Source: Mageeibacillus sp. UBA4314
GTDB lineage: Bacteria; Bacillota; Clostridia; Saccharofermentanales; Saccharofermentanaceae
Assembly (NCBI GenBank): GCA_002394605.1
Contig: DGUI01000027.1
Coordinates: 2,161-66,160, forward strand
DNA length: 64,000 bases
Direction: 5' to 3'
A program made the translations under genes and the position numbers. The notes below the pieces were generated by a model. The model worked only from the letters and a program-made list of their open reading frames with translations. It was not told where the DNA came from and did not search any database. Positions 7,699 through 30,097 of the stretch are shown here, one piece after another. Position 1 is the first letter of the stretch; each line of letters begins with the position of its first letter.

Positions 7699-9940
7699 TC
7701 TGCATTTGATACTGGCTTTCGTTCTGCCTGTCGTGATCATGGCTCTTGCCTTTGCGGCGGCGCAGATCAAGCCGGGCAGCATCCTTCCCGAAGAAGCAAC
7801 ATTAAGGTATTCCGAGATGGATGATGATATCCTTTGCTCTGTCGACGGGCAGATCAGTTCCTGGCTTACGGTAAGGGAATCGTTTGCTTCACAGGATAAG
7901 CTCGAAGGCATGGGAGGTGTCGAGCTGCTCATTACGGAGTATATGGATCCGTTCTTTATCCTGTCCCTGGGACTGCCCGTAAGCTGGCTGCAGGTCTTCT
8001 ACATGGTCTGCTATTTCCTGCGGTTCGGTCTCGCGGGGATCACGATGTTCCTTTTGTTGGACTGCTGCATAAAGGGTGAACGCAGTTTCAGCCTGTTCAT
8101 GGCAGTACTCTATTCTGTCTCGGCGGTCGCAATGCTGTCAGCCGGATCTGTATCCCTGATGAACCTTTATATCCTGTTCCCGCTGTTCCTGAGATACATG
8201 GATGCGCTTATTACGGGCGGGTCCTTTGTATCAGCAAGATACATACTTGTCAGCATGCTGGTGTACATATCGGGCGTTACAGGTCTTATCCAGGGCTGGA
8301 TCATGACCATATTGTTCGGAGTCTTCATATCGGTATTAAGATACGGGAAGTTCACGGCAGTATTCAATTCCCTGTCGCGGATAGTGATAAACTCGTTCGT
8401 TGGGGTTATCCTGACGGGGATCGTTAACATCCCGAGGCTTATGTCCATCAGTTATGAGAGTATTACGCCGGAGATCTTCGAAGAGGGAGAGATGAGATAT
8501 ACTTTCTTCGACCTTGTCTCATCCGTCGCGAGCGGCAGATCCGTAGATTCATCTGATGTCCTGGTACCTGCGGTCTATATTGGCATATTTACCGTCATGC
8601 TCGTTATCCTGCTGTTCCTTAACAGATATGTCCCGGTCAGGATCAAAGCTGCAGTTGCGGTGCTGACGGTGATCATATATGTCACATGTTCTTATACGGC
8701 AATAAGTGATGTGCTGTCGTTCACAGGCATCTCAACCGCATGTCAGGCTGCCCGTCTTGGAGGACTTACTGTCATGCTCTTTGTCAGCGCAGGCGTTTCC
8801 CTTAAGAACATCAGCGGCCTTTCCAAAGGAAGCATATATGCTTCCATTCTGTTCATGATCGCGGTCGTATGCATAGCAAATAATTCGGAGAATATCTACG
8901 GATACATGAATTACCAGCTCTTCATGACGGTAATATCAGCCATAGTTTCCGGTGTCTTTCTGCTGTCATATCTGGAAGGTGCAAAGAGATCTTATATGAC
9001 GGCTTTCTTTGCTGCCGCATTCATCGCTCTTATCATGAACTGCGGATATGTGTTCATGATGTCGGATGTCTCGCCTGAGGATTATGAGTGCGTAACATAC
9101 GAGTCAGGGACCGGAGATCTCCTGAGTATGCCTTCGAGGATACCGGTATTAGGTGACAGGGTCAGCTATGTTGTCGTTCCTTCTGACGGTTTTACCCCTG
9201 AGGATGGGGATGATCCTGCACTGGCTGTCAACAAGATCGCAAAGTGCATTCAGATCGATGAAGTATTCTCAGGATATGATACGGAGGAGATCATCAATAA
9301 CGGTTTTGAGTCTGAAGACGGCAGATATGTGCTCAAGGAGGATGAAAGCGAAATGATCCTTGGCATTGACGTTGACGACGGCGAAGACATATATGTCAGT
9401 TCAGGACTTAATGTGCCTATTACGATGGCGGAGATGCGCTTCTCCCTGTATGATGAGCCGGATGATCATTTCTTCCACGGACCGTTCCTCGAATGCATAT
9501 CTTATGACGGCAACACTTTTGAGGTCCAGCTGTTAGGCGGCAAGTCAGGCGGCAAGTCCGGACGTATCGGAGTATATACCCTTAACTCACACGAGCTTGG
9601 CAAACTGAAGATGGTCACAAGGCAGTTAGGTTCCGGCAAGTTTACGGTCAGTTCGGATATGGCCGGTGATAATAAAGGTTCAAAAACTCTCATTACAGGA
9701 ATCCCTTATAATGATAATATTAAAGTAAAGGTGAATGGCAGGAATGTTGATACCGCTGATTATCTGAACAGGGTCATCGCGGATATCGGGGATGTCGGAT
9801 CCGCACCGGTTGTTGAGATCACAGCTGAACTGCCCGGCATCTTTGCCGGAACGGTATTGTCTCTTGCCGGATTGGCGGTCTTTGTCTGGATCGCCTTCCA
9901 TAACCTCAGAGAAGGAGAGGAGAATGTGAGCCATGCTTAA
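7664..9940 (+). CDS. Divergent YfhO-like membrane protein (copy 2)
   Basis: Same TM layout and C-terminal 'ITGIPYNDNIKVKVNG...TM' as YfhO, but the N-terminal D-x3-Q motif is not recognisable; TTG start overlaps copy 1. Confidence 0.65.
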   Translation: MRLLNKKKIRFDLHLILAFVLPVVIMALAFAAAQIKPGSILPEEATLRYSEMDDDILCSVDGQISSWLTVRESFASQDKLEGMGGVELLITEYMDPFFILSLGLPVSWLQVFYMVCYFLRFGLAGITMFLLLDCCIKGERSFSLFMAVLYSVSAVAMLSAGSVSLMNLYILFPLFLRYMDALITGGSFVSARYILVSMLVYISGVTGLIQGWIMTILFGVFISVLRYGKFTAVFNSLSRIVINSFVGVILTGIVNIPRLMSISYESITPEIFEEGEMRYTFFDLVSSVASGRSVDSSDVLVPAVYIGIFTVMLVILLFLNRYVPVRIKAAVAVLTVIIYVTCSYTAISDVLSFTGISTACQAARLGGLTVMLFVSAGVSLKNISGLSKGSIYASILFMIAVVCIANNSENIYGYMNYQLFMTVISAIVSGVFLLSYLEGAKRSYMTAFFAAAFIALIMNCGYVFMMSDVSPEDYECVTYESGTGDLLSMPSRIPVLGDRVSYVVVPSDGFTPEDGDDPALAVNKIAKCIQIDEVFSGYDTEEIINNGFESEDGRYVLKEDESEMILGIDVDDGEDIYVSSGLNVPITMAEMRFSLYDEPDDHFFHGPFLECISYDGNTFEVQLLGGKSGGKSGRIGVYTLNSHELGKLKMVTRQLGSGKFTVSSDMAGDNKGSKTLITGIPYNDNIKVKVNGRNVDTADYLNRVIADIGDVGSAPVVEITAELPGIFAGTVLSLAGLAVFVWIAFHNLREGEENVSHA

Positions 9941-11064: not shown

Positions 11065-13020
11065 ATGATCAGAAAGTCAAAGATAAATGGTGACAAGCAA
11101 GGTATCATTCTTGTTATGGTCCTCCTGATCGTTGCAATGGCGATGATCTTCATCTCTGCGGCTCTGTTGCTTACAAATTCAACAAGGAGCAGACTCTACA
11201 ACAACGCAGAAGAGAGCCAGGCAAGACTTACGGTTACATCTGCTGCCGAGGCTTTATATCAGGCTCTCGAGATGCAGGAGATCAGTGACGATACGCTCGG
11301 AGCTCTTGCTGCAGGATCCGGTTCTACGTTGACATTGACAGTAGATGACGGAACAGTTGCAGGTATGGGTACCGCAGCTGATAACTGCACGAAGGTTCAT
11401 ATCTACGAGAAGAAGGTCAGCTCTGTTGACTATGTTTACATGGATTTCACAACAACGATCGGTCCCAAGTCCGAGAATGTCCGTATGATCCTCAAGGCTC
11501 CTACGCCTCCGGTCAAGACTAACCTCTTCAGCACAGTCATGGACCTCGCAGGTGCTGCAGGCGACCAGAACCTCGCTCAGTTCAATATCGGTGAGGGCGG
11601 CGGATCCAAGAAGGACAATGTTGTTGTCGTTCGTGGTTCAGGTAAGAAGTATGTTATCGACCGTGCAAACCAGGATATCTATTCAACTCATATCTTCGTT
11701 GGTGAGACAAGTTCAACATCGATCGATGTATGGCTCAGAGACTCATCATACTACGGCGATCTCGTATTCTACGGCGATTATGCAACACTTCACTGGGATC
11801 TCCAGCCTAAGATCAAGGGTAATGTATATTTCCTCGGCAAGTCTTCCGGTACTGACAAGAACGCTTTTACAGGTGTTGACAGCACATCAAGGACTTTCGG
11901 TGAGAACTCAGCTTCATGGGTATTTGTTAACCGTGTAGCAAATGGTGACACAGACCGTGTTGAGAACATGCTCAAGAACAAGACTTGCGTTCTCCTTCTT
12001 GACAGCTCAAACGACACAGGTGCAAGTGTAAGCTGGGACGATGACAATGCTTCCGGAATCTCTGCTTCTCAGAAGTCAACATGGAAGTCAAGTTATACAG
12101 CAGGTTCTTCCAAGATCACAAATCTCAAGAAGGCCATCAAGGATTACATGAGTTCAACATTTGACGGTGACGGAGCTTTCCCTACGACCGATCAGGCTTT
12201 GAACACTGTACATGTAAACAAGTCAAGCTCGGGAGCTGCTCAGTACACAGCTTCTAACTTCCTCAACACGTTTGCATATTCAGCTTCACATAAGACATTC
12301 CTCCCTGCAGGCAACTACAGGATCTATGATTCAGGTTCAGGTTCTCACAGCATGAACACATCAGCCAAGAACGGTCAGGGAGACATCAAGTATGTATTCC
12401 TTAACGGTGCATTTGATTACAACATCTACTTCGGCGCTGACTACGACATGACCGGTGTACTCTTCGTACAGCTTGGCGGTACAAAGAATTCTATCTGCAA
12501 CTTCATCCTTGAGAAGAATTGCGACCTGACACTCGGCTATTCGAACTACACAAACAATGATTACTACGGTACCGGTTTTGTATCAGTAAGTTCTTCAGGT
12601 TATTCAACTCCCGAGGCTATGTACACGGCATTTAGCACAATGAAGATGGGTTCAACAACAGCTTCTGTATATGACGGAACAAAGAGACCTTATATGTACA
12701 TCTACGGTATCGGCGGTACAAACGGCAACCATGTAACATTCGGTAACAGCGGCGGTGCAAGATGCGTAGTTGAAGCTTATGTTGGTCTGTTCGAGGATTC
12801 ATATCCCGGTAAGTCCATACTTGAGTTCTCAAATCAGCCTGTATACTTCTACGGCAGAATCCAGGCAGCTAAGTTCATCGCAGATACGAACAGCAACAAT
12901 AGCCACATCTACTATTGTCCTGACCCTAACTCTGATGATGATGATTCACCTAAGCCTGCAAGGACCGGTTACTCAGTATACGATGTTATCTACTACTACG
13001 ATTTCTCATCTCCTACATGA
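11065..13020 (+). CDS. Large PilX/GspK-type minor pilin (putative tip pilin/adhesin)
   Basis: Class III signal KQG|IILVMVLLIVAM with no Glu5, followed by 'EESQARLTVTSAAEALY' (PilX-N pattern); large Ser/Gly/Asn-rich beta-type C-terminal region. Confidence 0.78.
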   Translation: MIRKSKINGDKQGIILVMVLLIVAMAMIFISAALLLTNSTRSRLYNNAEESQARLTVTSAAEALYQALEMQEISDDTLGALAAGSGSTLTLTVDDGTVAGMGTAADNCTKVHIYEKKVSSVDYVYMDFTTTIGPKSENVRMILKAPTPPVKTNLFSTVMDLAGAAGDQNLAQFNIGEGGGSKKDNVVVVRGSGKKYVIDRANQDIYSTHIFVGETSSTSIDVWLRDSSYYGDLVFYGDYATLHWDLQPKIKGNVYFLGKSSGTDKNAFTGVDSTSRTFGENSASWVFVNRVANGDTDRVENMLKNKTCVLLLDSSNDTGASVSWDDDNASGISASQKSTWKSSYTAGSSKITNLKKAIKDYMSSTFDGDGAFPTTDQALNTVHVNKSSSGAAQYTASNFLNTFAYSASHKTFLPAGNYRIYDSGSGSHSMNTSAKNGQGDIKYVFLNGAFDYNIYFGADYDMTGVLFVQLGGTKNSICNFILEKNCDLTLGYSNYTNNDYYGTGFVSVSSSGYSTPEAMYTAFSTMKMGSTTASVYDGTKRPYMYIYGIGGTNGNHVTFGNSGGARCVVEAYVGLFEDSYPGKSILEFSNQPVYFYGRIQAAKFIADTNSNNSHIYYCPDPNSDDDDSPKPARTGYSVYDVIYYYDFSSPT

Positions 13021-16107: not shown

Positions 16108-16956
16108 TTACCTCCCTGTTAAAAACATATAAATAATATGAACGACCGACACGGCCTGAAGGATACAGACTGTGGCGATCCCAAAATATTTATCGGATCT
16201 TGTGTTCTTTGTTACGGCTCTTGCGATCGAGTAGGAAAGACCATAGATGGCAAAATCAAGCCACTTGCTCGTAAACTGGTAATAGTAGCCGAACATGAAT
16301 ATCGATGAAAGCGTTATGTCCATATAGACATCGCCCTTCGTGTACTTCTTCTTCATCAGCAGCGCAAGCAGGAAGCAAACTGCGCATACGGCGCAGATCC
16401 TTCCTATCGTTACCCCGAGATTGATGAGTATCTCAACGATGCCTCCTTCGAGGATCCCGAAAGCGGGGGGAAGGATAACTGCAATGACAACGCATATGAC
16501 TGCCCAGACTGCAGTTACTATGTGGTTTGAACCGGTATCGTAGTAGATCATCATGGAAGATACGCAGGCTGCAAGGAGCAGGACATATGAGATAAAGTAG
16601 AGCAGGAAGAACGTCTGCTGGTTATATCCGAGATTGATGATAGCTGCGTAAGCATATTTGTAGACCCCGACCGACGCGATCAGGAAGAGAACGCCGGTAA
16701 AACTCTCGATCTTGGTATATCTCGAAGCGATGGGAGCGCCGCAGTACCTGCACTTGCCCTTGAGCGTCGCCCAGCTTATGATCGGTATCAGATCCTTGGC
16801 TCCCAGTTTATGTCCGCACGTCATACACATGGAATGTCCCTTGACTATCGTTCTTCCGGCAGGGAGCCTGTATATCACAACATTAAGGAAACTGCCTATG
16901 ATCACGCCGAAAACGCCGGAAATGAAAATAAAATAAACTGCCAGAAAAATATCCAA
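16108..16956 (-). CDS. pilD: Prepilin peptidase/N-methyltransferase
   Basis: GSFLNVVIYRLP, C..C...L...DLIPI.SW..LKGKCRYC; TTG start after GGAGG; C-terminal peptidase part divergent. Confidence 0.85.
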   Translation of the reverse strand: MDIFLAVYFIFISGVFGVIIGSFLNVVIYRLPAGRTIVKGHSMCMTCGHKLGAKDLIPIISWATLKGKCRYCGAPIASRYTKIESFTGVLFLIASVGVYKYAYAAIINLGYNQQTFFLLYFISYVLLLAACVSSMMIYYDTGSNHIVTAVWAVICVVIAVILPPAFGILEGGIVEILINLGVTIGRICAVCAVCFLLALLMKKKYTKGDVYMDITLSSIFMFGYYYQFTSKWLDFAIYGLSYSIARAVTKNTRSDKYFGIATVCILQAVSVVHIIYMFLTGR

Positions 16957-17086: not shown

Positions 17087-17189
17087 TTGATAAATATTAG
17101 GCTCGATTATTGTGTCGAGGTGTCTCCATTTGCGCCTCCCCATGTTATTGACCTATTATAACAGGCGTAGCCTTAAACCAGGAGGAAGT

Positions 17190-18857
17190 ATGAAGAGATT
17201 AGGTGATATCCTCATCGAGAGTGGATTCCTGTCTGCGGCTGAGCTTTCAGAGGCTCTGACCAATTCGAAGGAAACCGGCAAGCGACTCGGAGAGGTAATC
17301 GTCGATATGGGCTTAATGTCCGAGTTTGATATTCTCCGAGCAGTGTCAAGCCAGTACGATTACCCGATTATTGACTTGACCAGTATCGAGATCGACCAGA
17401 AGGCAACATCCCTTTTCGACGAGAAGTATTGTGTCGAGAACTGCGTTTTACCGATAGGTTTTGATGGTGACAATCTTGTAGTTGCTATCGATGACCCTAT
17501 GAACATCCTTATAATGGATGATCTCCAGTTCAGGTCAGGCTATAACGTAACCCCGATGCTTGCGACCAAGACATCTATCCTCGAGGCTGTTAAGGTTAAT
17601 TACGGTAAGGAGCAGGCAGCTCAGGCAGCCGAAGAGCTCGGCATCGACATGAGCCAGGATCTTGAAGGTCTTGATTCCGAATTGTCAGATGCGGTTAACT
17701 CAGCTCCTGTTGTTAAGCTCGTAAACTCAATGATCGATTACGCTATCAGAGCAGGATCATCAGATATCCATATCGAACCTATGGAAGACAGGGTTCGAGT
17801 CAGGATAAGAATCGACGGCGTCATGCAGGAAGTCATGAGCAACCCGCTCGCTGCAAAAGATGCCATCACTACCAGGATCAAGATCCTCGGCGGTATGAAC
17901 ATCGCTGAGAAGAGGATCCCTCAGGACGGCCGTATCAGAACAGAGATCAACGGCGAACCCGTGGACATGCGTGTATCCATCCTTCCTTGTATCACAGGTG
18001 AGAAGACGGTTATCCGTATCCTTGCAAAGAACGATGGCAACCTCAACCGTAAGTTCCTCGGCATAAGCGATCACAATAATGCGCTTATCGATAAGATCGT
18101 TAAGGTCCCTCAGGGCGTTTGCCTCGTATCAGGACCTACCGGTTCAGGTAAGACAACAACACTTTATACTATCCTTTGTGAGAAGAACACACCTGAAACT
18201 AATATCATTACAGCTGAAGACCCTGTCGAGATCCGTATCCCCGGACTTAACCAGTGTCAGATCAATGCTAAGGCCGGAATGACATTTGCTTCAGCACTCC
18301 GTTCTATCTTGCGTCAGGACCCTGATATCGTACTCGTCGGAGAGATCCGTGACGGTGAGACTGCCGAGATCGCGATGAGAGCTGCTATCACGGGTCACTT
18401 GGTTTTCAGCACCATCCATACGAATGATGCTGTATCTTCAATTAACCGTCTCATAGACATGGGTATCGAGCCTTACATGGTATCTACTGCCGTTGTAGGC
18501 GTCATCTCCCAGCGTCTCGTCAGAAGGATCTGTACCAATTGCCGTAAGACATACGAACCCGATGAGGCTCTCAAGGAACAGCTTCAGCTTGAAGATGGAC
18601 AGAAGCTCTATATGGGTGAAGGCTGTACTGACTGCAATGGTTCAGGTTATAAGGGCCGTATCGCTATCCACGAGATCATCTGTATGACCAAGGGCATGAA
18701 GATGCTTCTCGAGAAGCGTGCTACTGAAGAGGAAATGAGAGTCCTTGCCGTATCAGAAGGTACACAGATGCTCTTCGATTCTGCAAAGGCGCTTGTTCTT
18801 GAAGGTATCTCGACTGTTGACGAGATGAACAGAGTTGCATACTCAATTGACGGATAA
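17190..18857 (+). CDS. pilB: Type IV pilus assembly ATPase PilB (GspE family)
   Basis: N-terminal MshEN-like 'RLGDILI..G.L...EL..AL' and 'RLGEVIV'; ASDIHIEP, GPTGSGKTTT, EDPVE, LRQDPDIVLVGEIRD; ATG 17190 after GGAGG. Confidence 0.95.
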   Translation: MKRLGDILIESGFLSAAELSEALTNSKETGKRLGEVIVDMGLMSEFDILRAVSSQYDYPIIDLTSIEIDQKATSLFDEKYCVENCVLPIGFDGDNLVVAIDDPMNILIMDDLQFRSGYNVTPMLATKTSILEAVKVNYGKEQAAQAAEELGIDMSQDLEGLDSELSDAVNSAPVVKLVNSMIDYAIRAGSSDIHIEPMEDRVRVRIRIDGVMQEVMSNPLAAKDAITTRIKILGGMNIAEKRIPQDGRIRTEINGEPVDMRVSILPCITGEKTVIRILAKNDGNLNRKFLGISDHNNALIDKIVKVPQGVCLVSGPTGSGKTTTLYTILCEKNTPETNIITAEDPVEIRIPGLNQCQINAKAGMTFASALRSILRQDPDIVLVGEIRDGETAEIAMRAAITGHLVFSTIHTNDAVSSINRLIDMGIEPYMVSTAVVGVISQRLVRRICTNCRKTYEPDEALKEQLQLEDGQKLYMGEGCTDCNGSGYKGRIAIHEIICMTKGMKMLLEKRATEEEMRVLAVSEGTQMLFDSAKALVLEGISTVDEMNRVAYSIDG

Positions 18858-20030: not shown

Positions 20031-21233
20031 ATGCCTAATTTTAAATATCAGGTAATCGATGCAGCGGGCAAGACGTCTACCGGTGTCATTGATGCTGCCA
20101 GCATGGCTGACGCGTCAAGGAAACTCCGTGCAGACGGCAAGTATGTCGCATCGCTTTCACTTGATAAAGGTGCCGGATTTCTTAATTTCGGTGGCAAAAG
20201 GAAGTTAAAGACAAAAGAGCTCGTTCTTATTACGAGACAGTTGGCTTCACTGCTTTCTGCGGGCATAACGATCATCAGGGCTTTGGACATGTTGTATCAG
20301 CAGGTTGATACAAAGAATGCGAAAGCAATCGTTGGTGAGGTTTATGAATCCATTCAGGGCGGCCGTACCATGTCTGAGGCTTTCAAGGAACAACAGGGAC
20401 TTATTCCTAACATCATGACCAGTATGGTCGCTGCTGGTGAAGAGTCCGGTCGTCTCGACGAAGTTATGGAGAGACTTGCTGAGCACTTCCAGAAAGCTCA
20501 GAAGCTCAAGAACAAGCTGAGTTCAGCAATGGTTTACCCGAAGATCCTTGCGTTCGTTACTTTCGCAGTATCCTGGGGTCTTCTTACATTCCTTGTACCC
20601 AGCATCACGGCAACTATCGCAGACCTCGGCGGTAAACTTCCCGGTCTTACGAAAGCGATCATCGCTGTCAGTGACTCTCTGACGCATTTCTGGTATGTAT
20701 ATCTTGCAATTGTAGTATTCCTGGTTGGCGGCTTCAAGATGTGGAGAGCTTCAGAGAAGGGGCAGTATCAGTGGTCTTGGCTCATGATCCATATGCCTAT
20801 CGTCGGCAACATGACTAAGATGACGGCTACTGCGCAGTTCACAAGAACAGTTTCCACACTCCTTAAGTCTGGTATCTCCGTTCTTCAGGCTGTTGAGATC
20901 ACAGAGAAGTCTCTCGACAACGTTATCTTGGAGAAGAAACTTTCTGATGCGAGGATCGAGATCAGAAAGGGTGCTGCACTTTCCAAGTCTATCAAGGGCA
21001 TCGAAGAATTCCCTCCGATGGTATACGCTATGACGGCTATCGGTGAGGAGTCAGGTACTCTCGATACGATCCTTGACAAAGCAGCAGATTACTTTGAAGA
21101 TGAAGCAGACGCTGCTACAACAAAAATGACAGCAGCTCTTGAACCTATTATGATCATCGTTATGGCCGTTATCGTCGGACTTATCGTCGGTGGTATCGCT
21201 ATCCCGATCTTCAATATGGCATCGTTCATCTAA
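20031..21233 (+). CDS. pilC: Type IV pilus platform protein PilC (GspF family)
   Basis: Two T2SSF domains: RQLASLLSAG, AGEESG.LD..., MVYP, GEESGTLD, LEP. Confidence 0.95.
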   Translation: MPNFKYQVIDAAGKTSTGVIDAASMADASRKLRADGKYVASLSLDKGAGFLNFGGKRKLKTKELVLITRQLASLLSAGITIIRALDMLYQQVDTKNAKAIVGEVYESIQGGRTMSEAFKEQQGLIPNIMTSMVAAGEESGRLDEVMERLAEHFQKAQKLKNKLSSAMVYPKILAFVTFAVSWGLLTFLVPSITATIADLGGKLPGLTKAIIAVSDSLTHFWYVYLAIVVFLVGGFKMWRASEKGQYQWSWLMIHMPIVGNMTKMTATAQFTRTVSTLLKSGISVLQAVEITEKSLDNVILEKKLSDARIEIRKGAALSKSIKGIEEFPPMVYAMTAIGEESGTLDTILDKAADYFEDEADAATTKMTAALEPIMIIVMAVIVGLIVGGIAIPIFNMASFI

Positions 21234-21259: not shown

Positions 21260-22378
21260 ATGGATTTTTCATCATTTGGAAAGGCTTCATCTGAATTTGT
21301 TATAGACTGTTCCAGTTCCGATCTTAAGCTTGCAGTTGGATCATACAACAGGAAAACAGGTCTTGTGTTGCTCGATAAGGTTGGTGTAGTTCCCCTTGAG
21401 AACGACGCTATCAACGACGGTGCGATCGCAGACTCTTTCGGTGTTGTTATGGCTCTGAAGCACGCTATTGCAAGATTGGATATCAAAAACAGAGGAGCAA
21501 TAGTTACAACAGAGGGTGCTTTCATGCACACAAGAGATCTTGAGCTTCCCAAGGCTAAAGCTGAGCAGCTCAAGGATATGGTTAAGTACGAGGTTATGGG
21601 TCAGGGCAACAACAGAGAGATGACCATCGATTACATCATCTACGGTACAGCTCTCGATGAGGAAACAAATGCCCCTAAGTATAAGATCAGAGCAACAGCA
21701 GTTCCTGTTGATACGATCGCTGAGTACAGAGAATTCCTGAAAAACATGGATCTGACTCCCATCGCGCTGGACGTTAACCCCAACGCTATCAGGAAGCTCT
21801 TCTCTTCCGGTATCATCAACGGCAATGTAAACATCTCTCAGTCAACACTCCTGTTGGTTGAGCTTGCCGGTGCAACTACAACAGTTACGGTTCTTGATAA
21901 GGGCTTCCCGGTCCTCTCAAGAAGACTTGCTTTCGGTCATGCAAACATCCGTCAGGTTGCTGAGTCTGTTAAGAAGATGCAGGGCGGCGGAGACAATCAG
22001 TCTTCACTGGCTAGACGTCTTAACATCACAAAGTCTGACGCTGAGTCATTGATCCCTATCGAGGATATCGATGTATGGCATGAGACAGTTGCAGAGATCC
22101 CTTCTCTGCAGAGCGCTGTAAACGCATACTTCAAGAGCCTTGTTGAGACTGTTAACAGAACGGCACAGTTCTCAATTTCCAAGTTCCATATTGACAGCAT
22201 TAGCACATGTTTCCTCTATGGATCAGGTGCAGGTTACAAGAAAATCGACAAGGAACTGTCAAGACAGCTTGGCACACAGGTTGAGATCCTCAACACTCTC
22301 AGCACTGTCGCAGGTCCTAAAGATTTCATGCTGCCCCAGTTCGTAAATTGCTGTGGTGCACTTATTCGTGAAGATTAA
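21260..22378 (+). CDS. pilM: Pilus assembly protein PilM (actin-like)
   Basis: IDCSSSDLK..., 'AIVT..G...TR.LELP', GATTT, FLYGSGA; position after pilC. Confidence 0.85.
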   Translation: MDFSSFGKASSEFVIDCSSSDLKLAVGSYNRKTGLVLLDKVGVVPLENDAINDGAIADSFGVVMALKHAIARLDIKNRGAIVTTEGAFMHTRDLELPKAKAEQLKDMVKYEVMGQGNNREMTIDYIIYGTALDEETNAPKYKIRATAVPVDTIAEYREFLKNMDLTPIALDVNPNAIRKLFSSGIINGNVNISQSTLLLVELAGATTTVTVLDKGFPVLSRRLAFGHANIRQVAESVKKMQGGGDNQSSLARRLNITKSDAESLIPIEDIDVWHETVAEIPSLQSAVNAYFKSLVETVNRTAQFSISKFHIDSISTCFLYGSGAGYKKIDKELSRQLGTQVEILNTLSTVAGPKDFMLPQFVNCCGALIRED

Positions 22379-22393
22379 GGAGGAGGAAATAAA

Positions 22394-23341
22394 ATGGCAG
22401 GTTTAGGTTCAAAGAAAGATATTGCTAAGCGCGATCTGAATTTCTTTGCAGAATTTACTGCAGCAGCAGCAAAAATGACCAGATTGCTTGGTTATGGCGT
22501 TGTTGTCGGTATCGTAGTCGTAGCGATCATCGTAGGTTTTATCGTATGGGGAATCATCCGCAATGCGATTACACAGTCAGCCATCAACGATCTTGAGGCT
22601 CTGCTCGCATCCGATGAGTACGCAGGTCTCCAGGAAGATGCCGTAAGACTCAATTCAGAACTCACAGGATTCAACAATTACTACTATGCTCTGTCTCAGA
22701 TGAGAGAGCAGGTTGACAAGATCCCCGCTGTCCCCGTTGAGCTTACAAACATCATGGAGAAGTCAATACCTTCTGACTCTTACATTGATAAGTATGAGAT
22801 CAGCCAGACAGGTATGCATGTTGAGGGTTACACATTCAGCTACTACAGTGCATTGAATTTTGTAAATCTCCTCAACAAGTCAGATGTATTCTCTCTTCCC
22901 GTTCAGCTCGAGGTTCAAAGGGTAGATCCTTCAACTATCGGAAGCGTTGAGACATTCATCAGACAGGATGGAAAAGTAAATGCCATCAACAACTATTATC
23001 ACTTCATCGTAGAAGGTCTGCTCGTCAGCGAGGTACACGTATCTGTATCCAACTATCTGCGCACACCTGACGGAAAGGGCGGATTCGTCATTTCCAGCCT
23101 TGGCGGTGTAGAGGTTGAGAAGTATAAGGCAGGAAGCACATATGAAGTTAATAACATCGCTACATATGAGCAGTCCGGTGTAACATACAACCTGTCTCAG
23201 GTTGCTATCAACAGGGCAACACTTGCTCAGGACAAGGTTACACAGCTTGCAACAGACAACAAGATCAGCGGTATTGCTAATGACGATATCGAGATCCAGC
23301 TGTACTACAGTCCTGCAGAGAAGAAGGAGGGTGAAGCATAA
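22394..23341 (+). CDS. pilN: PilN-like protein with extra C-terminal domain
   Basis: N-terminal 'LNFF' PilM-binding motif, TM, coiled coil, 'IP.D..I...I......VEG.T....A..FV..L..S..F' PilN core. Confidence 0.75.
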   Translation: MAGLGSKKDIAKRDLNFFAEFTAAAAKMTRLLGYGVVVGIVVVAIIVGFIVWGIIRNAITQSAINDLEALLASDEYAGLQEDAVRLNSELTGFNNYYYALSQMREQVDKIPAVPVELTNIMEKSIPSDSYIDKYEISQTGMHVEGYTFSYYSALNFVNLLNKSDVFSLPVQLEVQRVDPSTIGSVETFIRQDGKVNAINNYYHFIVEGLLVSEVHVSVSNYLRTPDGKGGFVISSLGGVEVEKYKAGSTYEVNNIATYEQSGVTYNLSQVAINRATLAQDKVTQLATDNKISGIANDDIEIQLYYSPAEKKEGEA

Positions 23342-24360
23342 TGAATAATTTATCATTACGTGAAAAAGCAATTATCTATATTCTTTTCCTGGTTGTTATC
23401 GCTTTGCTTGCTTATCTGTTCGGTATCAGGACACTTAATAATGCAAACGCTGATATGCAGATCCAGCTTCAGGAACTTCAGGCAAGGAAGGAACAGCTCG
23501 ATCTCCTGAAGCAGGAAAACCAGAAGACTCAGGGAGCCATTGAGACCCTGAAGTCTGACATCGTTAAGTATGAGCAGTCTTTCATCAGCGAGATGAAGAC
23601 AGAGAACCTTGAGAAGTATGTTCTCGATGAATTCGAGAAGGCCGGCATGCCTTTCCTCGCAGACGTTAAGTCTGAGGATGTTCAGATGGAAGCCATCGTT
23701 CTTGCTGACGGTACATCTTCCAATGACTCGGTCAACTGTAAGAGGATCATCGCTAAGTATGCTACAACAGACGGATACGAGATCACACAGTACAATCTCA
23801 ATGAGAGCAACTATGATGAGAATGGCAACCCCAGGACATCATACCTCAAGGATATGCTGAACAAGACAGGTGTCTATAACGAAGAGAACAGGTATGGTTA
23901 CCAGGAATTCATTAAGGCACTTGCTACGATGGAGAAGGCTGATCCTGATTGCGTTAAGATCACAAAGATCGGTGCAGAGTCAACTCATGGTTACCTGACA
24001 TTGACAGCAGCTATCGATTTCTACGGAACAACTCTCACCAACAGACAGTCACAGGAGTCTGATGCTCATAAGGCTAAGTTCTACGGTGTATGGAACGGTG
24101 ACGGAGTCGATACAAAGGGCGGATTCATCGGAATGCCTTACAAGGTTGATAACCCTGACAGCTTGTGGAATGGTATCCTTATCGATCCTAACGAGCTTAA
24201 CGGATTCATCGAGAGACCGTTCGCAGCTTATCTCTCCAATGCACGCTTCACACAGCTCCTCTCTGAGAAAGGACTTGAGAAGATCGTTGGCGGCGGTATT
24301 GTTGCAGCTGATTCTGATAAGGTTCCTGAGCCTACTCCGGCTCCCGATGATGCAGCATAA
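23341..24360 (+). CDS. PilO-like protein (extended)
   Basis: 'LSLREK.II.IL' N-terminus, TM, coiled coil; translationally coupled to pilN (TAATG). Confidence 0.65.
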   Translation: MNNLSLREKAIIYILFLVVIALLAYLFGIRTLNNANADMQIQLQELQARKEQLDLLKQENQKTQGAIETLKSDIVKYEQSFISEMKTENLEKYVLDEFEKAGMPFLADVKSEDVQMEAIVLADGTSSNDSVNCKRIIAKYATTDGYEITQYNLNESNYDENGNPRTSYLKDMLNKTGVYNEENRYGYQEFIKALATMEKADPDCVKITKIGAESTHGYLTLTAAIDFYGTTLTNRQSQESDAHKAKFYGVWNGDGVDTKGGFIGMPYKVDNPDSLWNGILIDPNELNGFIERPFAAYLSNARFTQLLSEKGLEKIVGGGIVAADSDKVPEPTPAPDDAA

Positions 24361-24401: not shown

Positions 24402-24429
24402 TTGCAATTCAAAAAACAGGTGTTATACT
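24402..24429 (+). promoter_or_regulatory. Promoter of pilin 1
   Basis: TTGCAA-N16-TATACT with TG extended -10. Confidence 0.6.
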
Positions 24430-24473
24430 GTAGTTACAAACCAATAAACAAAAAATTCTAGGAGGAATTTACC

Positions 24474-24674
24474 ATGAAGAAGATTCAGAAGACAAAGAAG
24501 GGCTTTACACTCGTTGAGATGGTACTCGTTATTGCTATCATCGTTATCCTTGCTGCAGTTCTTGCACTTAGCATCGGTACATACCTCGGCAGAGCAAAGG
24601 CAGCTGCTTCTTCCATCAGCTTGCACAACTGGTCAATCTCTTCTGTAGACGCAGAGATCCAGGCAGCTCTCTAA
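24474..24674 (+). CDS. pilA: Very short type IV pilin 1 (probable major pilin; 56 aa mature)
   Basis: KKG|FTLVEMVLVIAIIVILAAV class III signal; strong AGGAGG RBS; own promoter and terminator. Confidence 0.88.
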   Translation: MKKIQKTKKGFTLVEMVLVIAIIVILAAVLALSIGTYLGRAKAAASSISLHNWSISSVDAEIQAAL

Positions 24675-24699
24675 TAGTTAGACTACTAGCTGACTAATG

Positions 24700-24728
24700 A
24701 CACGGCGGGGCAACCCGCCGTGTTTTTT
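24700..24728 (+). terminator. Intrinsic terminator after pilin 1
   Basis: ACACGGCGGG-gcaa-CCCGCCGTGT followed by a T run. Confidence 0.9.
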
Positions 24729-24766
24729 ATCAATTCATAAATTTTTAACAATTTGTTAATTTATTG

Positions 24767-24795
24767 TTGAAAAAAGTTGAAACACCAAGTATAAT
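24767..24795 (+). promoter_or_regulatory. Promoter of the pilin 2-3-4 operon
   Basis: TTGAAA-N17-TATAAT. Confidence 0.75.
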
Positions 24796-24829
24796 CTAGA
24801 TGTAAGAAAATACTTTCAGGAGGCACGCC

Positions 24830-25045
24830 ATGCACAAAGTGATGAAGTGTAGAAGAGGATTCACTCTGGTAGAGATCGTTTTGGTCATTGCAATTATCCT
24901 TATACTTGCAAGTGTTACCGCATTGAGTGTTTCAGATATATTGAGGAATAGTCAGCGTGGTCAATCGTCCGTCAGTGATGCCGTGACCTCTGCGAAGTCT
25001 GAGATCAGCAGCAAAGAAGCAGCGCTGAGAGGCTATGGTTTCTAA
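24830..25045 (+). CDS. Very short type IV pilin 2 (61 aa mature)
   Basis: RRG|FTLVEIVLVIAIILILASV; AGGAGG RBS. Confidence 0.85.
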   Translation: MHKVMKCRRGFTLVEIVLVIAIILILASVTALSVSDILRNSQRGQSSVSDAVTSAKSEISSKEAALRGYGF

Positions 25046-26314: not shown

Positions 26315-26343
26315 TTGACAAATGATGAAGACCAACATATAAT
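26315..26343 (+). promoter_or_regulatory. Consensus SigA promoter of tRNA-Gly
   Basis: TTGACA-N17-TATAAT. Confidence 0.9.
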
Positions 26344-26357
26344 AATTAAGCTGTTGT

Positions 26358-26432
26358 GCGGGATTAACTCAGTGGTAGAGTGTCACCTTGCCAAGGTGAA
26401 AGTCGCGAGTTCGAATCTCGTATCCCGCTCCA
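26358..26432 (+). tRNA. tRNA-Gly (GCC)
   Basis: GCGGGAT acceptor stem, D-arm AGTGGTAGAG, anticodon arm TCACC-TTGCCAA-GGTGA, GTTCGAAT T-loop, encoded CCA. Confidence 0.98.
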
Positions 26433-26433
26433 T

Positions 26434-26460
26434 AACGTCCCTGATGCAGGGACGTTTTTT
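26434..26460 (+). terminator. Terminator after tRNA-Gly
   Basis: AACGTCCCTG-atg-CAGGGACGTT followed by TTTT. Confidence 0.85.
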
Positions 26461-26807: not shown

Positions 26808-29387
26808 TTGGAGGTTGTTTTGCAGAATAAGTCGAAGTCGAAGTTATATTATGCCTTACTGGCATTTCTTTTTCTGCTTATACTTAAGCTTATCCTGTTC
26901 TTTGATGACAAACTCCTCGTATGGCTCTATGACGGCGCATCGCAGCATCTGTCAGCTCTCAATTATTACTCTCAGTACTTAAGAGACGTTTTCTCCGGGA
27001 TATTACAGGGGAATTTCCAGATCCCCAGGTTCGATCTGTCGATCGGTGAGGGAAGCGATATACTAACTACTTTCCATTATTACTGCATCGGCGATCCTTT
27101 CGCATTCTTCAGTGTTTTCTTCAGGGGCGAACTGGTCTATCTGTACTATGAGTTCTCGGTGTATCTGAGGTTATTCCTGTCGGGATTCTCGTTTCTGTTT
27201 TTTGCAAAACATTTCGACGGCGGAAGTCTCATGAAGAAGGCTTCGGACATCGTGGTCGCGGCAGCAGCTCTCATGTATGCGTTCTCATGCTGGTCGGTAA
27301 CTTGCATGGGCCGTCACCCGTTCTTCCTTAATCCGTGCATATTCATGCCGCTGATCCTTGCAGGCGTCGAAATGATCATAAGCAGAAAAAAGCGAGGCGT
27401 CCTTCTTCTATCCGTATTCCTGTCATCACTTTCCAATCTCTACTTCCTTTACATGATGGCACTGATCACAGTGATCTATACCATGGTCCGCCTGATCGTG
27501 ATGCATGGAAAGAACATAAGAGAATACATAAGGCCGTTATTGACTGCCGCTGTTGAGGCCGGCATTGGCGTAGTCCTGTCGGGTGCCGTTTTCTACCCGG
27601 TCGCCAGGGTATTTCTGGGCGACTCAAGAGTCGGCGGGAGCAATAACGTAGGAATATTCTACCCGCTTAAGTATTATCTGACGTTCCCTCAGTCGCTGAT
27701 ATCCGGCAACCTTGATTACTACAGGCTGTTCGGGATAGGTGCAGTAGGTGTCATCATAATCTATCTGGTATTTGTGAGGAGCTCTTCAAGACTTCTCAAG
27801 ATATTCTTTGTTATCACGGCGCTCTTCCTGATCTTCCCGGTATTCGGCACGGTCATGAACGGCTTTGCCTATGCATCCGACAGATGGTGTTTTGTCCTGC
27901 CACTGCTTACCGGTGCGGGGCTTATTGTAATATGGAACGATCTGGTCAACATAAAGAAGACCGATGCGGTAATACTCATGATCTTAATGGCAGGCGCCAT
28001 CGTGCTGTCTGTAATAGGCAAAGATATGCAGGGGATCACCGTTATGTCATTAGGCGTGGTCATGATCCTTATCATGTTTGTCATGAAGAGATTGAAGGTC
28101 AGAAGCGGCATTGCCATAGGAGTGATCGCCGTATCTGTCCTCTGCGGCATGATCTTCTATATCATCCCGTTCCTGCCGCAGCTCGCACCGATGAGCTGGC
28201 TCAATGTCTACTACAACGGCAATGAAGCGGCATACATCGCAGACATGGATAAGTCGCGTCCCTTAAGATACTCCGGCAATATCCTCACCGAAAACGTATC
28301 TCCGCTGTCACAGATCTCTTCAACGCAGTTCTACTGGAGCAACGCCAATCCGTATGTCGGAGAGTTCAGGACCGATATCGCGTCCCCTGAATACCGCCTC
28401 TATTACTACACTGGATACAATTCCTCATACACGCTCCTCAATCTGTCGGGAAGCAGATATTATGCGCAGTCCGGAATGCAGACAGAACCGCTTCCTTACG
28501 GTTACGAGAAATGCGCACATATGGATATCGGCTATGACATAATGCGCAATGTAAACGATACCTCTCTGGTCTATTCCTACGACAGAACGGTTCCTGAGCA
28601 GCAGTGGAAGAGCCTTACGCCTACTGACAGGCAGGTGCTTTTAGCACAGGCAATGGTCGTACCGGAAGATAACGGTCCTTCAGTTGACATTGCCCCGACG
28701 TCCGTAAGTTCAAGAGTTACGTCAACGGATAATGATCAGGTCACGATCGAGTTCGACGGCAGGCCCGGCAGCGAGACATATATCACATTCAGCAACATGA
28801 GATCAGATCTTGCAGATACTTTATTCTTCATTTTCGTGAATATCCCTGAGACAGGGGAGACATATGTGCTCAACTATTACACGATGTCCAACTGGTACAA
28901 CGGAAGGGATGAGTTCTCGCTCAACTTAGGCTGGCACGAGGATGCGATCCACAAAGCCGTTATCACGGTCGAGAACGATCTGAAATATCAGTGTGACTAT
29001 TCCGTATCCTGCATCGATATTAACAGTTCATCCGGGAATATCAAAAGAAGGTTTGAGGTCAAGCCTGAGAACCTGAGCGTTGAGGCGCGCGGCACAAAGA
29101 TCAGCTACTCTGTCGATTCTCCTGATGAGAGATATTATGTTCTGGCAGTTCCGTATTCCAAGGGATGGACGGCTTATGTTGACGGCAGCAAGGCTGAGAT
29201 ACTGCGATCAAATATACAGTACATGGCTGTTAAGCTTGATAAGGGCAGGCATGATGTCATGTTCGTCTATTCGGGTGATCAGGACACGGGTATTTATATG
29301 AGCATAGCAGGACTTATTGCTACCGCAATATATCTTGTCTGTGGTAAAATCATAGATAGAAAACGATCAGAGGAGATTGCACCATAA
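26808..29387 (+). CDS. YfhO-family GT-C glycosyltransferase (copy 3)
   Basis: DGASQH loop, W-less 'IGEGSDI...YYCIGDPF', HPFFLNP, NGFAY..DRW, AVPYSKGWTAYVDG + C-terminal TM. Confidence 0.88.
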   Translation: MEVVLQNKSKSKLYYALLAFLFLLILKLILFFDDKLLVWLYDGASQHLSALNYYSQYLRDVFSGILQGNFQIPRFDLSIGEGSDILTTFHYYCIGDPFAFFSVFFRGELVYLYYEFSVYLRLFLSGFSFLFFAKHFDGGSLMKKASDIVVAAAALMYAFSCWSVTCMGRHPFFLNPCIFMPLILAGVEMIISRKKRGVLLLSVFLSSLSNLYFLYMMALITVIYTMVRLIVMHGKNIREYIRPLLTAAVEAGIGVVLSGAVFYPVARVFLGDSRVGGSNNVGIFYPLKYYLTFPQSLISGNLDYYRLFGIGAVGVIIIYLVFVRSSSRLLKIFFVITALFLIFPVFGTVMNGFAYASDRWCFVLPLLTGAGLIVIWNDLVNIKKTDAVILMILMAGAIVLSVIGKDMQGITVMSLGVVMILIMFVMKRLKVRSGIAIGVIAVSVLCGMIFYIIPFLPQLAPMSWLNVYYNGNEAAYIADMDKSRPLRYSGNILTENVSPLSQISSTQFYWSNANPYVGEFRTDIASPEYRLYYYTGYNSSYTLLNLSGSRYYAQSGMQTEPLPYGYEKCAHMDIGYDIMRNVNDTSLVYSYDRTVPEQQWKSLTPTDRQVLLAQAMVVPEDNGPSVDIAPTSVSSRVTSTDNDQVTIEFDGRPGSETYITFSNMRSDLADTLFFIFVNIPETGETYVLNYYTMSNWYNGRDEFSLNLGWHEDAIHKAVITVENDLKYQCDYSVSCIDINSSSGNIKRRFEVKPENLSVEARGTKISYSVDSPDERYYVLAVPYSKGWTAYVDGSKAEILRSNIQYMAVKLDKGRHDVMFVYSGDQDTGIYMSIAGLIATAIYLVCGKIIDRKRSEEIAP

Positions 29388-30097
29388 TGGATACTTTATA
29401 TGTTGTCATGCCGGCTTATAACGAGGAAGAGAATATCGAGGCTGTTATAAGACAGTGGTATCCGGTGCTGGCATTGGGTTCTTCCGATTCCAGACTTGTC
29501 ATAGCTGACAGCGGAAGCGTTGACAAGACACACGATATAATCGAGGGGATGAAGGAGAACGGCTATCCTCAGCTTGAGGCATATCCCGATACATTGAAGC
29601 AGCATGGCCCCAAGGTTATCGCACTCTACAAGTATGCGATCGATCATGGCGCTGATTATGTTTTCCAGACTGACTCTGACGGACAGACAAATCCTGATGA
29701 GTTCACGGCATTCTGGGAGATGAGGAATGCATATGATGCTCTGTTCGGAAGAAGGGTCAACAGGGGAGACGGTAAGTCGAGAGCTTTCGTGGAGAAGGTT
29801 GTATGTTTCCTTCTGAGGCTTTATTTCGGAGTTAAGGTCAAGGATGCGAATGCGCCATTCAGACTCTTTAAGACTGATGTGCTCAGCAAGTATGTCGGAA
29901 GATTCGAAGAGGATTATAACCTTCCTAATATCATGCTCACGACATTCTATGCTTACTATCATGAGAATTACTGTTTCCGCGACATCACTTTCAAGCCCAG
30001 GCAGGGCGGTGTTAATTCCATTAACATCAAGAAGATCTTTAAGATCGGCTGGAAGGCATTAGGTGATTTCCGCAGGTTCAAGAAGACGATGCGATGA
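29387..30097 (+). CDS. GT2 glycosyltransferase (polyprenol-phosphate sugar synthase, CsbB/GtrB/DPM1-like)
   Basis: VVMPAYNEEENI, D.GS.D.T, QTDSDGQ, D.NAPFRL; coupled to YfhO-3 (TAATG). Confidence 0.9.
   Translation: MDTLYVVMPAYNEEENIEAVIRQWYPVLALGSSDSRLVIADSGSVDKTHDIIEGMKENGYPQLEAYPDTLKQHGPKVIALYKYAIDHGADYVFQTDSDGQTNPDEFTAFWEMRNAYDALFGRRVNRGDGKSRAFVEKVVCFLLRLYFGVKVKDANAPFRLFKTDVLSKYVGRFEEDYNLPNIMLTTFYAYYHENYCFRDITFKPRQGGVNSINIKKIFKIGWKALGDFRRFKKTMR

Follow-up and report, generated by a model that had tools for sequence, protein, structure and literature searches.

Short, headless type IVa-type pilins in the pil locus of Mageeibacillus sp. UBA4314: a candidate helix-only filament

Can a type IVa-type pilus machine build its shaft from pilins that have no head? 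The question is raised by a 64,000-nucleotide stretch of DNA from Mageeibacillus sp. UBA4314 (contig DGUI01000027.1, positions 2,161 to 66,160; this whole stretch is called the window below), where a pil locus with genes for PilB- and PilT-type ATPases and a PilC platform protein also carries two prepilin genes, pilin 1 and pilin 2, whose mature products have only 56 and 61 residues. A first-pass annotation of the window had proposed that these form a minimal all-helical filament, built by a type IVa pilus (T4aP) machine in a monoderm. After the analysis reported here this is still the best-supported reading of the locus, with some room left for a partner protein encoded elsewhere. We lean, if only modestly, towards a shaft of helices only, in which pilin 1 is the major subunit and which a T4a-type machine makes in a single-membrane bacterium. 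The fuller proposal, that PilB, PilT, PilC and PilMNO build and retract a filament solely of 56-residue helices, and that this arose by head loss in Clostridia independently of Tad pili, stands in our judgement at an even balance. From the observations below we infer filament formation, the dominance of pilin 1, the lack of a head-supplying partner, and a role in adhesion, twitching or DNA uptake in the rumen.

The genome that was searched is of the metagenome-assembled type (2.26 Mb in 56 contigs, 48% GC) and falls in a Saccharofermentans/Mageeibacillus-labelled group of rumen and gut Clostridia. A profile search of this genome found no secretin (PF00263; PilQ) and no Omp85, which is consistent with a single-membrane host, since PilQ is expected in double-membrane bacteria only.

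Two short pilins and their relatives

Both genes had been annotated as prepilins with G|FTLVE-type signals. Direct reading confirms this, as each protein has a short class III leader with G-1, F+1 and E+5, and so do the domain models: Pfam N_methyl gives 32.4 bits for pilin 1 and 31.1 bits for pilin 2 (curated cut-off 21.2), and TIGR02532 gives 29.3 and 29.7 bits, respectively (curated cut-off 16.3). The tryptic peptide to be expected from pilin 1 is AAASSISLHNWSISSVDAEIQAAL. That neither protein has a head was also claimed, and the searches and models agree: domain-model searches with pilins 1 and 2 returned no head-domain family match, and AlphaFold2 predicts pilin 1 (from a 42-sequence alignment) to be a single uninterrupted helix from residue 13 to 65 (pLDDT 82) and pilin 2 to be a single helix from residue 13 to 68 (pLDDT 74). 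Foldseek comparison of the helix model with the PDB gave no matches, a result that is uninformative for a lone helix.

The pattern of conservation along the pilin 1 helix suggests how it might be packed. Mature residues 1-25 are nearly invariant (F1, T2, E5 and the hydrophobic run), and residues 26-56 carry a conserved stripe of small and hydrophobic residues (Y27, A31, A34, I38, H41, I45, V48, I52 and L56). On a helical wheel of residues 26-56 the hydrophobic moment points to 194 degrees and the variability moment to 20 degrees, that is, to opposite faces. Judged from this pattern, pilin 1 evidently turns one face to a conserved, buried contact, and its other face lies exposed and can vary freely.

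The first-pass annotation had also singled out the absence of G14 and P22. Both residues are indeed missing from the two short pilins (Table 1), but this does not set them apart, since there is no G14 and no P22 in any pilin of the organism, whether the mature form has 56 or 61 residues or the protein has 194, 196 or 245. Loss of G14 and P22 is thus a trait of the whole filament system and not of its headless subunits only. Melting of alpha-1 has been argued to reconcile core contacts with the packing of heads (PMC10710030); without a head such melting would not be needed, and this fits the loss of G14 and P22.

Might the short reading frames be frameshifts or errors of assembly? We regard this as so improbable that it can be set aside. 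Homologues of the same length span hundreds of independent assemblies, cultured isolates included; the pilin 1 frame is closed by a TAA-TAG double stop; DNA assemblies of four independent runs have no indels across the region; and a GC-rich hairpin with a T-run follows the pilin 1 stop in all 46 of the 46 pil-locus copies located in relatives, with stem sequences that differ between species. Pilin 1 had been credited with its own promoter, a strong ribosome-binding site and a terminator, and sites for all three are present. No PilA-C-like frame had been seen behind the gene; accordingly, the 155-nt gap between pilin 1 and pilin 2 holds no open reading frame (ORF), and the terminator and the promoter-like site of the next operon lie there instead.

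The short lengths are kept across relatives, as a survey of pilin lengths demonstrates. A search of 5.8 billion proteins returned 979 homologues of pilin 1, nearly all of 66-68 aa and 70-95% identical over their full length, and 20 homologues of pilin 2, almost all of 71 aa. A second set of homologues came from a library clustered at 50% identity; among its 143 best clusters carrying the motif the mature length is 70 aa or less in 112, and these 112 short family members have P22 in no case and G14 in one. We also compared 24 congeneric genomes and 80 public loci. The order pilD (on the opposite strand), pilB, pilT, pilC, pilM, pilN, pilO, pilin 1, pilin 2, followed by two longer pilins, the first of 190-235 aa and the next of 170-200 aa, is kept in 23 of these genomes and 51 of these loci. 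Each of the remaining 29 public loci is a lone second copy of pilin 1, beside which no neighbour is conserved. Across the syntenic loci mature pilin 1 has 56-60 residues; mature pilin 2 has 61 in most relatives (up to 65) and an aromatic C-terminus, [YK]GF or usually G[FY]. Related loci come from metagenome-assembled genomes of cattle, sheep, goat, yak, buffalo and horse, and also from isolates in culture, 'Ruminococcaceae bacterium' YRB3002 and KHP2. The headless pilin is therefore not confined to a single genome but belongs to a large family found in rumen and gut Clostridia of the Saccharofermentans/Mageeibacillus type.

Outside this group the picture changes. Among 399 evenly sampled Clostridia genomes, short matches over the full length came only from two genera of the host's own family, and the best matches in other Clostridia are only the N-termini of frames of 129-260 aa. 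One pilin of G026, a genome from the host's order, has 121 residues when mature and carries both G14 and P22. Given this longer pilin and the distribution, loss of the head within the host's family is the simplest history. A genome from another Clostridia family (G074) encodes a 65-aa mature pilin with P22 between pilT and pilD (L108:2406-2639, minus strand), which apparently arose independently, so that Clostridia may have lost the head of T4a-type pilins on more than one occasion.

The host genome also contains a fragment related to pilin 1. On contig C22 (50917-51345, minus strand) a 142-aa DUF4190-like membrane protein ends in ...SVGTYLGRAKAAASSISYHNWSIS, and the final 67 nt of its gene are 84% identical to the middle part of the pilin 1 gene. 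From its sequence this tail looks like the remnant of a second pilin copy fused to another gene; many relatives keep an intact orphan copy. We considered whether the fragment marks the syntenic site of the relatives' second copy and rejected the idea, as the sites share no neighbours.

Which pilin would form the shaft

Transcript evidence was drawn from Logan contig depth in metatranscriptomes, not from read counts, and strain-specific RNA figures are restricted to contigs at least 99% identical to the locus. By this measure the RNA contigs of pilin 1 are the deepest of the locus. In run X10 (99% likeness) a mismatch-free pilin 1 unitig has a depth of 371, compared to 6.6 for pilO and 10.1 for the transcript of pilins 2, 3 and 4; in X18 (99% likeness) a 394-nt pilin 1 contig has a depth of 16.8 and its neighbours 4-7, and this contig stops at 24693, just 5' of the terminator stem. 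At 95% likeness, X5 gives 131 for pilin 1 versus 20 and 6. RNA contigs in X5, X10 and X11 begin at 24813-24827, directly after the second promoter-like site, and extend to about 26250. Far larger, 1000-fold RNA spikes appear in the raw summed depth, and we rejected these as proof of expression: the 5' unitigs are multi-species and are inflated in DNA runs also, and for this reason only strain-specific unitigs count.

Several lines of evidence favour pilin 1 as the major subunit: it is monocistronic, with its own promoter and terminator, and the terminator is conserved in relatives; it is the most strongly conserved of the four pilins of the locus; a second genomic copy is frequent; and its transcript depth is the highest. 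The short pilins could instead be minor, priming or regulatory subunits, with the shaft made of a longer pilin. Two such pilins, of 194 and 196 aa, lie in the locus itself, and the first-pass annotation had noted that a conventional long major pilin elsewhere in the genome, if it dominated purified pili, would change the picture. A longer pilin does exist, a 245-aa orphan encoded on contig C4 (L001:6991-7728) between a CCA-adding enzyme-like gene and dnaX, and frames of about 240-260 aa with pilin N-termini recur in relatives. This protein consists of a pilin helix, a linker rich in Pro, Thr and Glu and a C-terminal module of about 100 aa without a family match; such a linker is typical of modular minor pilins, and on sequence the protein looks like one. 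Its depth in the same runs is 4-11, which is the level of the machinery genes, and the 194- and 196-aa genes sit behind pilin 2 in what is a typical minor-pilin operon. Even allowing for transcript evidence that is only semi-quantitative, the single-gene transcription, deepest RNA, conservation and frequent second copy of pilin 1 make a shaft of the 245-aa pilin, or of one of the pilins of about 195 aa, rather improbable.

If pilin 1 does form the shaft, the following mechanism can be envisaged. PilB and PilC would polymerise pilin 1 with the support of the PilM-, PilN- and PilO-like proteins, and PilT would retract the filament. The N-terminal 25 residues (F1, T2, E5 and the hydrophobic run) would form its core, as in all type IV filaments, and the stripe in the C-terminal half would pack on neighbouring subunits rather than on the pilin's own head; the variable face and the last 15 or so residues would make up the surface. 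Because mature pilin 1 is predicted to be a single helix of about 53 residues, helices alone would make up the shaft. The priming or tip complex would be supplied by pilin 2, pilins 3 and 4 (194 and 196 aa) and probably a 651-aa pilin-like protein encoded upstream, and the 245-aa orphan could contribute a functional module in few copies. That a helix-only type IV filament is physically possible is known from Tad pili (PMC10710030).

A number of points weigh against a helix-only shaft of pilin 1. The conserved 5' part of its gene is common to many members of the community and its depth is inflated in DNA runs too (2581 versus 7 in X7, and 50 versus 22 in X1), and in X5 the excess of pilin 1 RNA is only about 3-fold after normalisation by the DNA run X1. 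AlphaFold2 monomer models of a membrane-anchored helix are uninformative on assembly, and the conserved stripe could equally dock a head protein encoded elsewhere. The PilD of the locus has no recognisable Peptidase_A24 domain, so that processing of the pilins is an assumption. Finally, the filament described here for the Saccharofermentans/Mageeibacillus group should be taken as a prediction.

The pil locus and other pilus genes of the genome

The features of the locus are collected in Table 1. A complete PilB/PilT machine had been claimed, and for PilB, PilT, PilC, PilM and PilN the claim stands; the PilO-like protein gives a weak match only, and the PilD-like protein matches A24_N only. Across the genome our search counted one PilB-type ATPase, one PilC and two PilT proteins, the second PilT paralogue (on contig C31) being 43% identical to the first. 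The sole match in the genome to PF01478, the canonical Peptidase_A24 domain (with GGGDVKL), is an orphan gene on contig C56 (L110:7151-8035), and BLASTP found no similarity between its product and the PilD of the locus.

Table 1. Features of the pil locus and its surroundings, with positions counted from the first nucleotide of the window.
Feature	Position	Strand	Properties
651-aa pilin-like protein	11065..13020	+	class-III-like signal without Glu5 (KQG|IILVMVLLIV...)
pilD-like	16108..16956	-	A24_N (PF06750) 5e-31 only; C-terminal membrane half too diverged for Peptidase_A24; position kept in relatives
pilB, extension ATPase with MshEN N-terminal domain	17112..18857	+	T2SSE 1.2e-128; MshEN 1.2e-19
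pilT, retraction ATPase, 372 aa	18876..19994	+	T2SSE 3e-46; directly 3' of pilB
pilC, platform	20031..21233	+	T2SSF 5.7e-60, two repeats
pilM	21260..22378	+	PilM_2 1.3e-14
pilN, 315 aa, long C-terminal extension	22394..23341	+	PF05137 PilN 1.7e-6, over cut-off
pilO-like bitopic protein, 339 aa	23341..24360	+	weak T2SSM 6e-4, under cut-off; same position in 51 related loci
Promoter-like site of pilin 1	24402..24429	+	TTGCAA-16-TATACT, extended -10 TG; consensus match only
Ribosome-binding site of pilin 1	24461-24466		AGGAGG
pilin 1	24474..24674	+	66-aa prepilin MKKIQKTKKG|FTLVEMVLVIAIIVIL...; mature 56 aa; V14, L22
Intrinsic terminator of pilin 1	24699..24724	+	11-bp stem with 8 GC pairs, then T-run
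Promoter-like site of the pilin 2-3-4 operon	24767..24795	+	TTGAAA-17-TATAAT, 11/12
pilin 2	24830..25045	+	proposed minor pilin; 71-aa prepilin MHKVMKCRRG|FTLVEIVLVIAIILIL...; mature 61 aa; L14, L22
pilin 3, minor pilin, 194 aa	25061..25645	+	class III signal VG|FTLLEV; weak N_methyl; syntenic in relatives
pilin 4, minor pilin, 196 aa	25642..26232	+	N_methyl 1.2e-7; syntenic in relatives

The PilN and PilO-like proteins (22394-24360) are each 100-150 aa longer than usual, and their C-terminal extensions match no family. The 651-aa pilin-like protein has no Pfam match; in tblastn searches its relatives adjoin the pil locus in 12 related loci, and it is a putative large tip pilin of the GspK/PilX type. 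Directly after the pilin operon, within 26315-26432, there is a tRNA-Gly(GCC) gene with a perfect sigma-70-type promoter (12/12; 26315-26343) and a terminator (26434-26456). Genes for two YfhO-family membrane proteins and a GT2 glycosyltransferase border the locus (7664-9940, 26808-29387 and 29387-30097). We considered whether these might glycosylate the pilins and so provide a 'glycan head', and rejected the idea as unsupported: YfhO is present in 5 of about 51 loci and GT2 in 1, in the closest relatives only.

Since short Flp pilins use the Tad machine, as the first-pass annotation had remarked, the host's other pilus genes make for a live comparison. The genome has a separate Tad-like locus on contig C22 (L004:6418-10500), with a CpaF-like ATPase (399 aa), a TadB/C-like protein (528 aa), an FHA-domain protein and a 63-aa Flp1-like pilin (KKG|MGTVEIV...). 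This pilin scores 49.7 bits with the Flp1_like model (cut-off 33.5), and pilins 1 and 2 score 16.8 and 12.8 bits. We accordingly dropped the idea that pilin 1 is a Tad substrate, since it falls short of the Flp model, its gene belongs to the pil locus, and the Tad-like locus has a Flp pilin of its own.

Two more orphan prepilin-like peptides, of 57 and 64 aa (KKG|VTLVETV... and KQG|VSLIETV...), have Cys-containing tails and are encoded at L003:8525-8698 (minus strand) and L002:8664-8858 (minus strand), on contigs C42 and C2. The peptide on C42 lies about 400 nt downstream of a gene with radical SAM, SPASM and PqqD domains (L003:9092-10456), an arrangement which, by its sequence, resembles a RiPP precursor with its maturase. 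In addition, beside the gene for the 245-aa orphan pilin, the intergenic region upstream of dnaX (L001:7885-7940) has an RNA contig depth in X5 of 153 versus 2-4 around it; this may be a small structured RNA such as SRP RNA.

Comparison with known systems

Full-text literature searches found no description of short or headless T4a pilins in Clostridia, Firmicutes or rumen metatranscriptomes, or of Saccharofermentans pili. In a survey of 1,955 K02650 pilins the mature form ranges over 42-297 aa and averages 141 aa, and short ones outside Geobacter are not discussed there (PMC11046646). The nearest solved sequences to pilin 1 are Geobacter 'geopilin domain 1' chains (7tgg, 9egp and 2m7g/6vk9; E 7e-10 to 6e-7), followed by the N-termini of ordinary T4a pilins. 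One apparent solved short pilin, the 70-aa 'fimbrial protein' PDB 8TOB_GA, was rejected as such, being part of a normal Acinetobacter pilin that is modelled to residue 147.

Geobacter PilA-N (PDB 2M7G, 6VK9 and 7TGG) is like pilin 1 in its short T4a-type leader (G|FTLIE), in its mature length of about 61 aa, nearly all of it alpha-1, and in being encoded with PilB, PilT, PilC and PilM/N/O. In Geobacter the adjacent pilA-C gene supplies the head, and assembly takes place only with PilA-C (PMC10710030). It follows that pilin 1 could be a major subunit paired with a PilA-C analogue encoded elsewhere in the genome, the pilus then being of a two-chain, lollipop type. The kinship of its sequence to the geopilin chains (E about 7e-10) speaks for such a pair, as does the hydrophobic stripe in its C-terminal half, which needs a partner surface. 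However, pilin 1 has no adjacent partner gene: no extra ORF lies beside it in the 51 syntenic loci (a partner encoded elsewhere was not searched for), nor do the 29 orphan copies have a conserved neighbour. Geobacter PilA-N also keeps P22, and this segment melts in the filament (PMC10710030, PMC11046646), whereas P22 is found in none of the 112 short family members, and the face opposite the stripe is variable, as a solvent-exposed surface would be. Taking both sides together, we think a split pilin unlikely.

Further differences from Geobacter are the low aromatic content of pilin 1, its single-membrane host and the confinement of its family to rumen and gut Clostridia. The criteria for an e-pilin are at least 9.8% aromatic residues and aromatics at positions 24, 27, 50/51 and 32/57 (bioRxiv 10.1101/668343). 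Pilin 1, with F1, Y27 and W43 as its only aromatics (3/56, or 5.4%), fails them. If its shaft is indeed made of helices only, it would offer a natural reference for a filament of PilA-N only, an architecture put forward for the 'e-pili' of Geobacter and later disputed.

The ComGC pilins of Firmicutes competence pili (PMC7212644) are likewise small, lack beta-sheet and belong to single-membrane hosts. They keep a helical globular head (alpha-2 and alpha-3), and their ComGA/ComGB machine has no PilT and no PilM/N/O. A related suggestion is that the pilins studied here make only a short endopilus that spans the wall, either a secretion piston or a competence-type pseudopilus, which would be compatible with a helix-only shaft. 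A link with secretion has been made for clostridial type IV pilus systems (bioRxiv 2024.11.04.621531), competence pili have small, purely helical pilins (PMC7212644), and a thin fibre of helices would cross peptidoglycan easily. Against this, the PilT and PilM/N/O proteins that Com systems lack are all present here, the ComGC model NF040999 gives pilin 1 only 20.5 bits and pilin 2 15.4 bits (cut-off 75), and variability on the exposed C-terminal face suggests contact with the environment. An endopilus alone thus seems to us a poor prospect.

Tad pili are the only helix-only type IV filaments that have been solved (PMC10710030), and for that reason the Tad pilus is the best model for a filament of pilin 1. 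The Tad pilin of Caulobacter crescentus, PilA, resembles pilin 1 in having no globular domain, no P22 and a continuous helix; Tad pilins have 40-60 residues, and that of Caulobacter has 45, with the polar C-terminal part of the helix providing the filament's surface (PMC10710030). The two systems differ in their machines and in their signals: the Tad machine comprises TadA/CpaF, TadB/C and TadV, without a PilT, and Tad pilins bear the Flp motif; pilin 1 has F1, T2 and E5 and belongs to a pilBTCMNO locus. It is in these respects, the set of machine genes and the N-terminal motif, that pilin 1 agrees with the conventional T4aP pilins of clostridia (about 120-170 aa in their mature form), from which it departs in having no head domain and in the loss of G14 and P22.

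A helix-only shaft of pilin 1 would, if true, have consequences for how T4a pili are thought to be assembled. It would mean that neither a head to clamp below nor a melting segment is needed for a pilin to be extracted and polymerised by the T4a platform and motor, and it would test both the idea that alpha-1 melting exists for the sake of head packing and the proposal that, during assembly, the platform clamps its pilin just under the globular head. In the gut communities of ruminants the pilin family is both abundant and transcribed, and it has members in culture, isolates YRB3002 and KHP2 of the Hungate collection and Saccharofermentans acetigenes among them, so these points are directly testable. 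Deviations from the lollipop pilin that have been reviewed are the split pilin of Geobacter, the helical head of ComGC and the modular minor pilins (PMC10191384); a shaft of helices only, produced by a retractile machine of the T4a type, would be a fourth.

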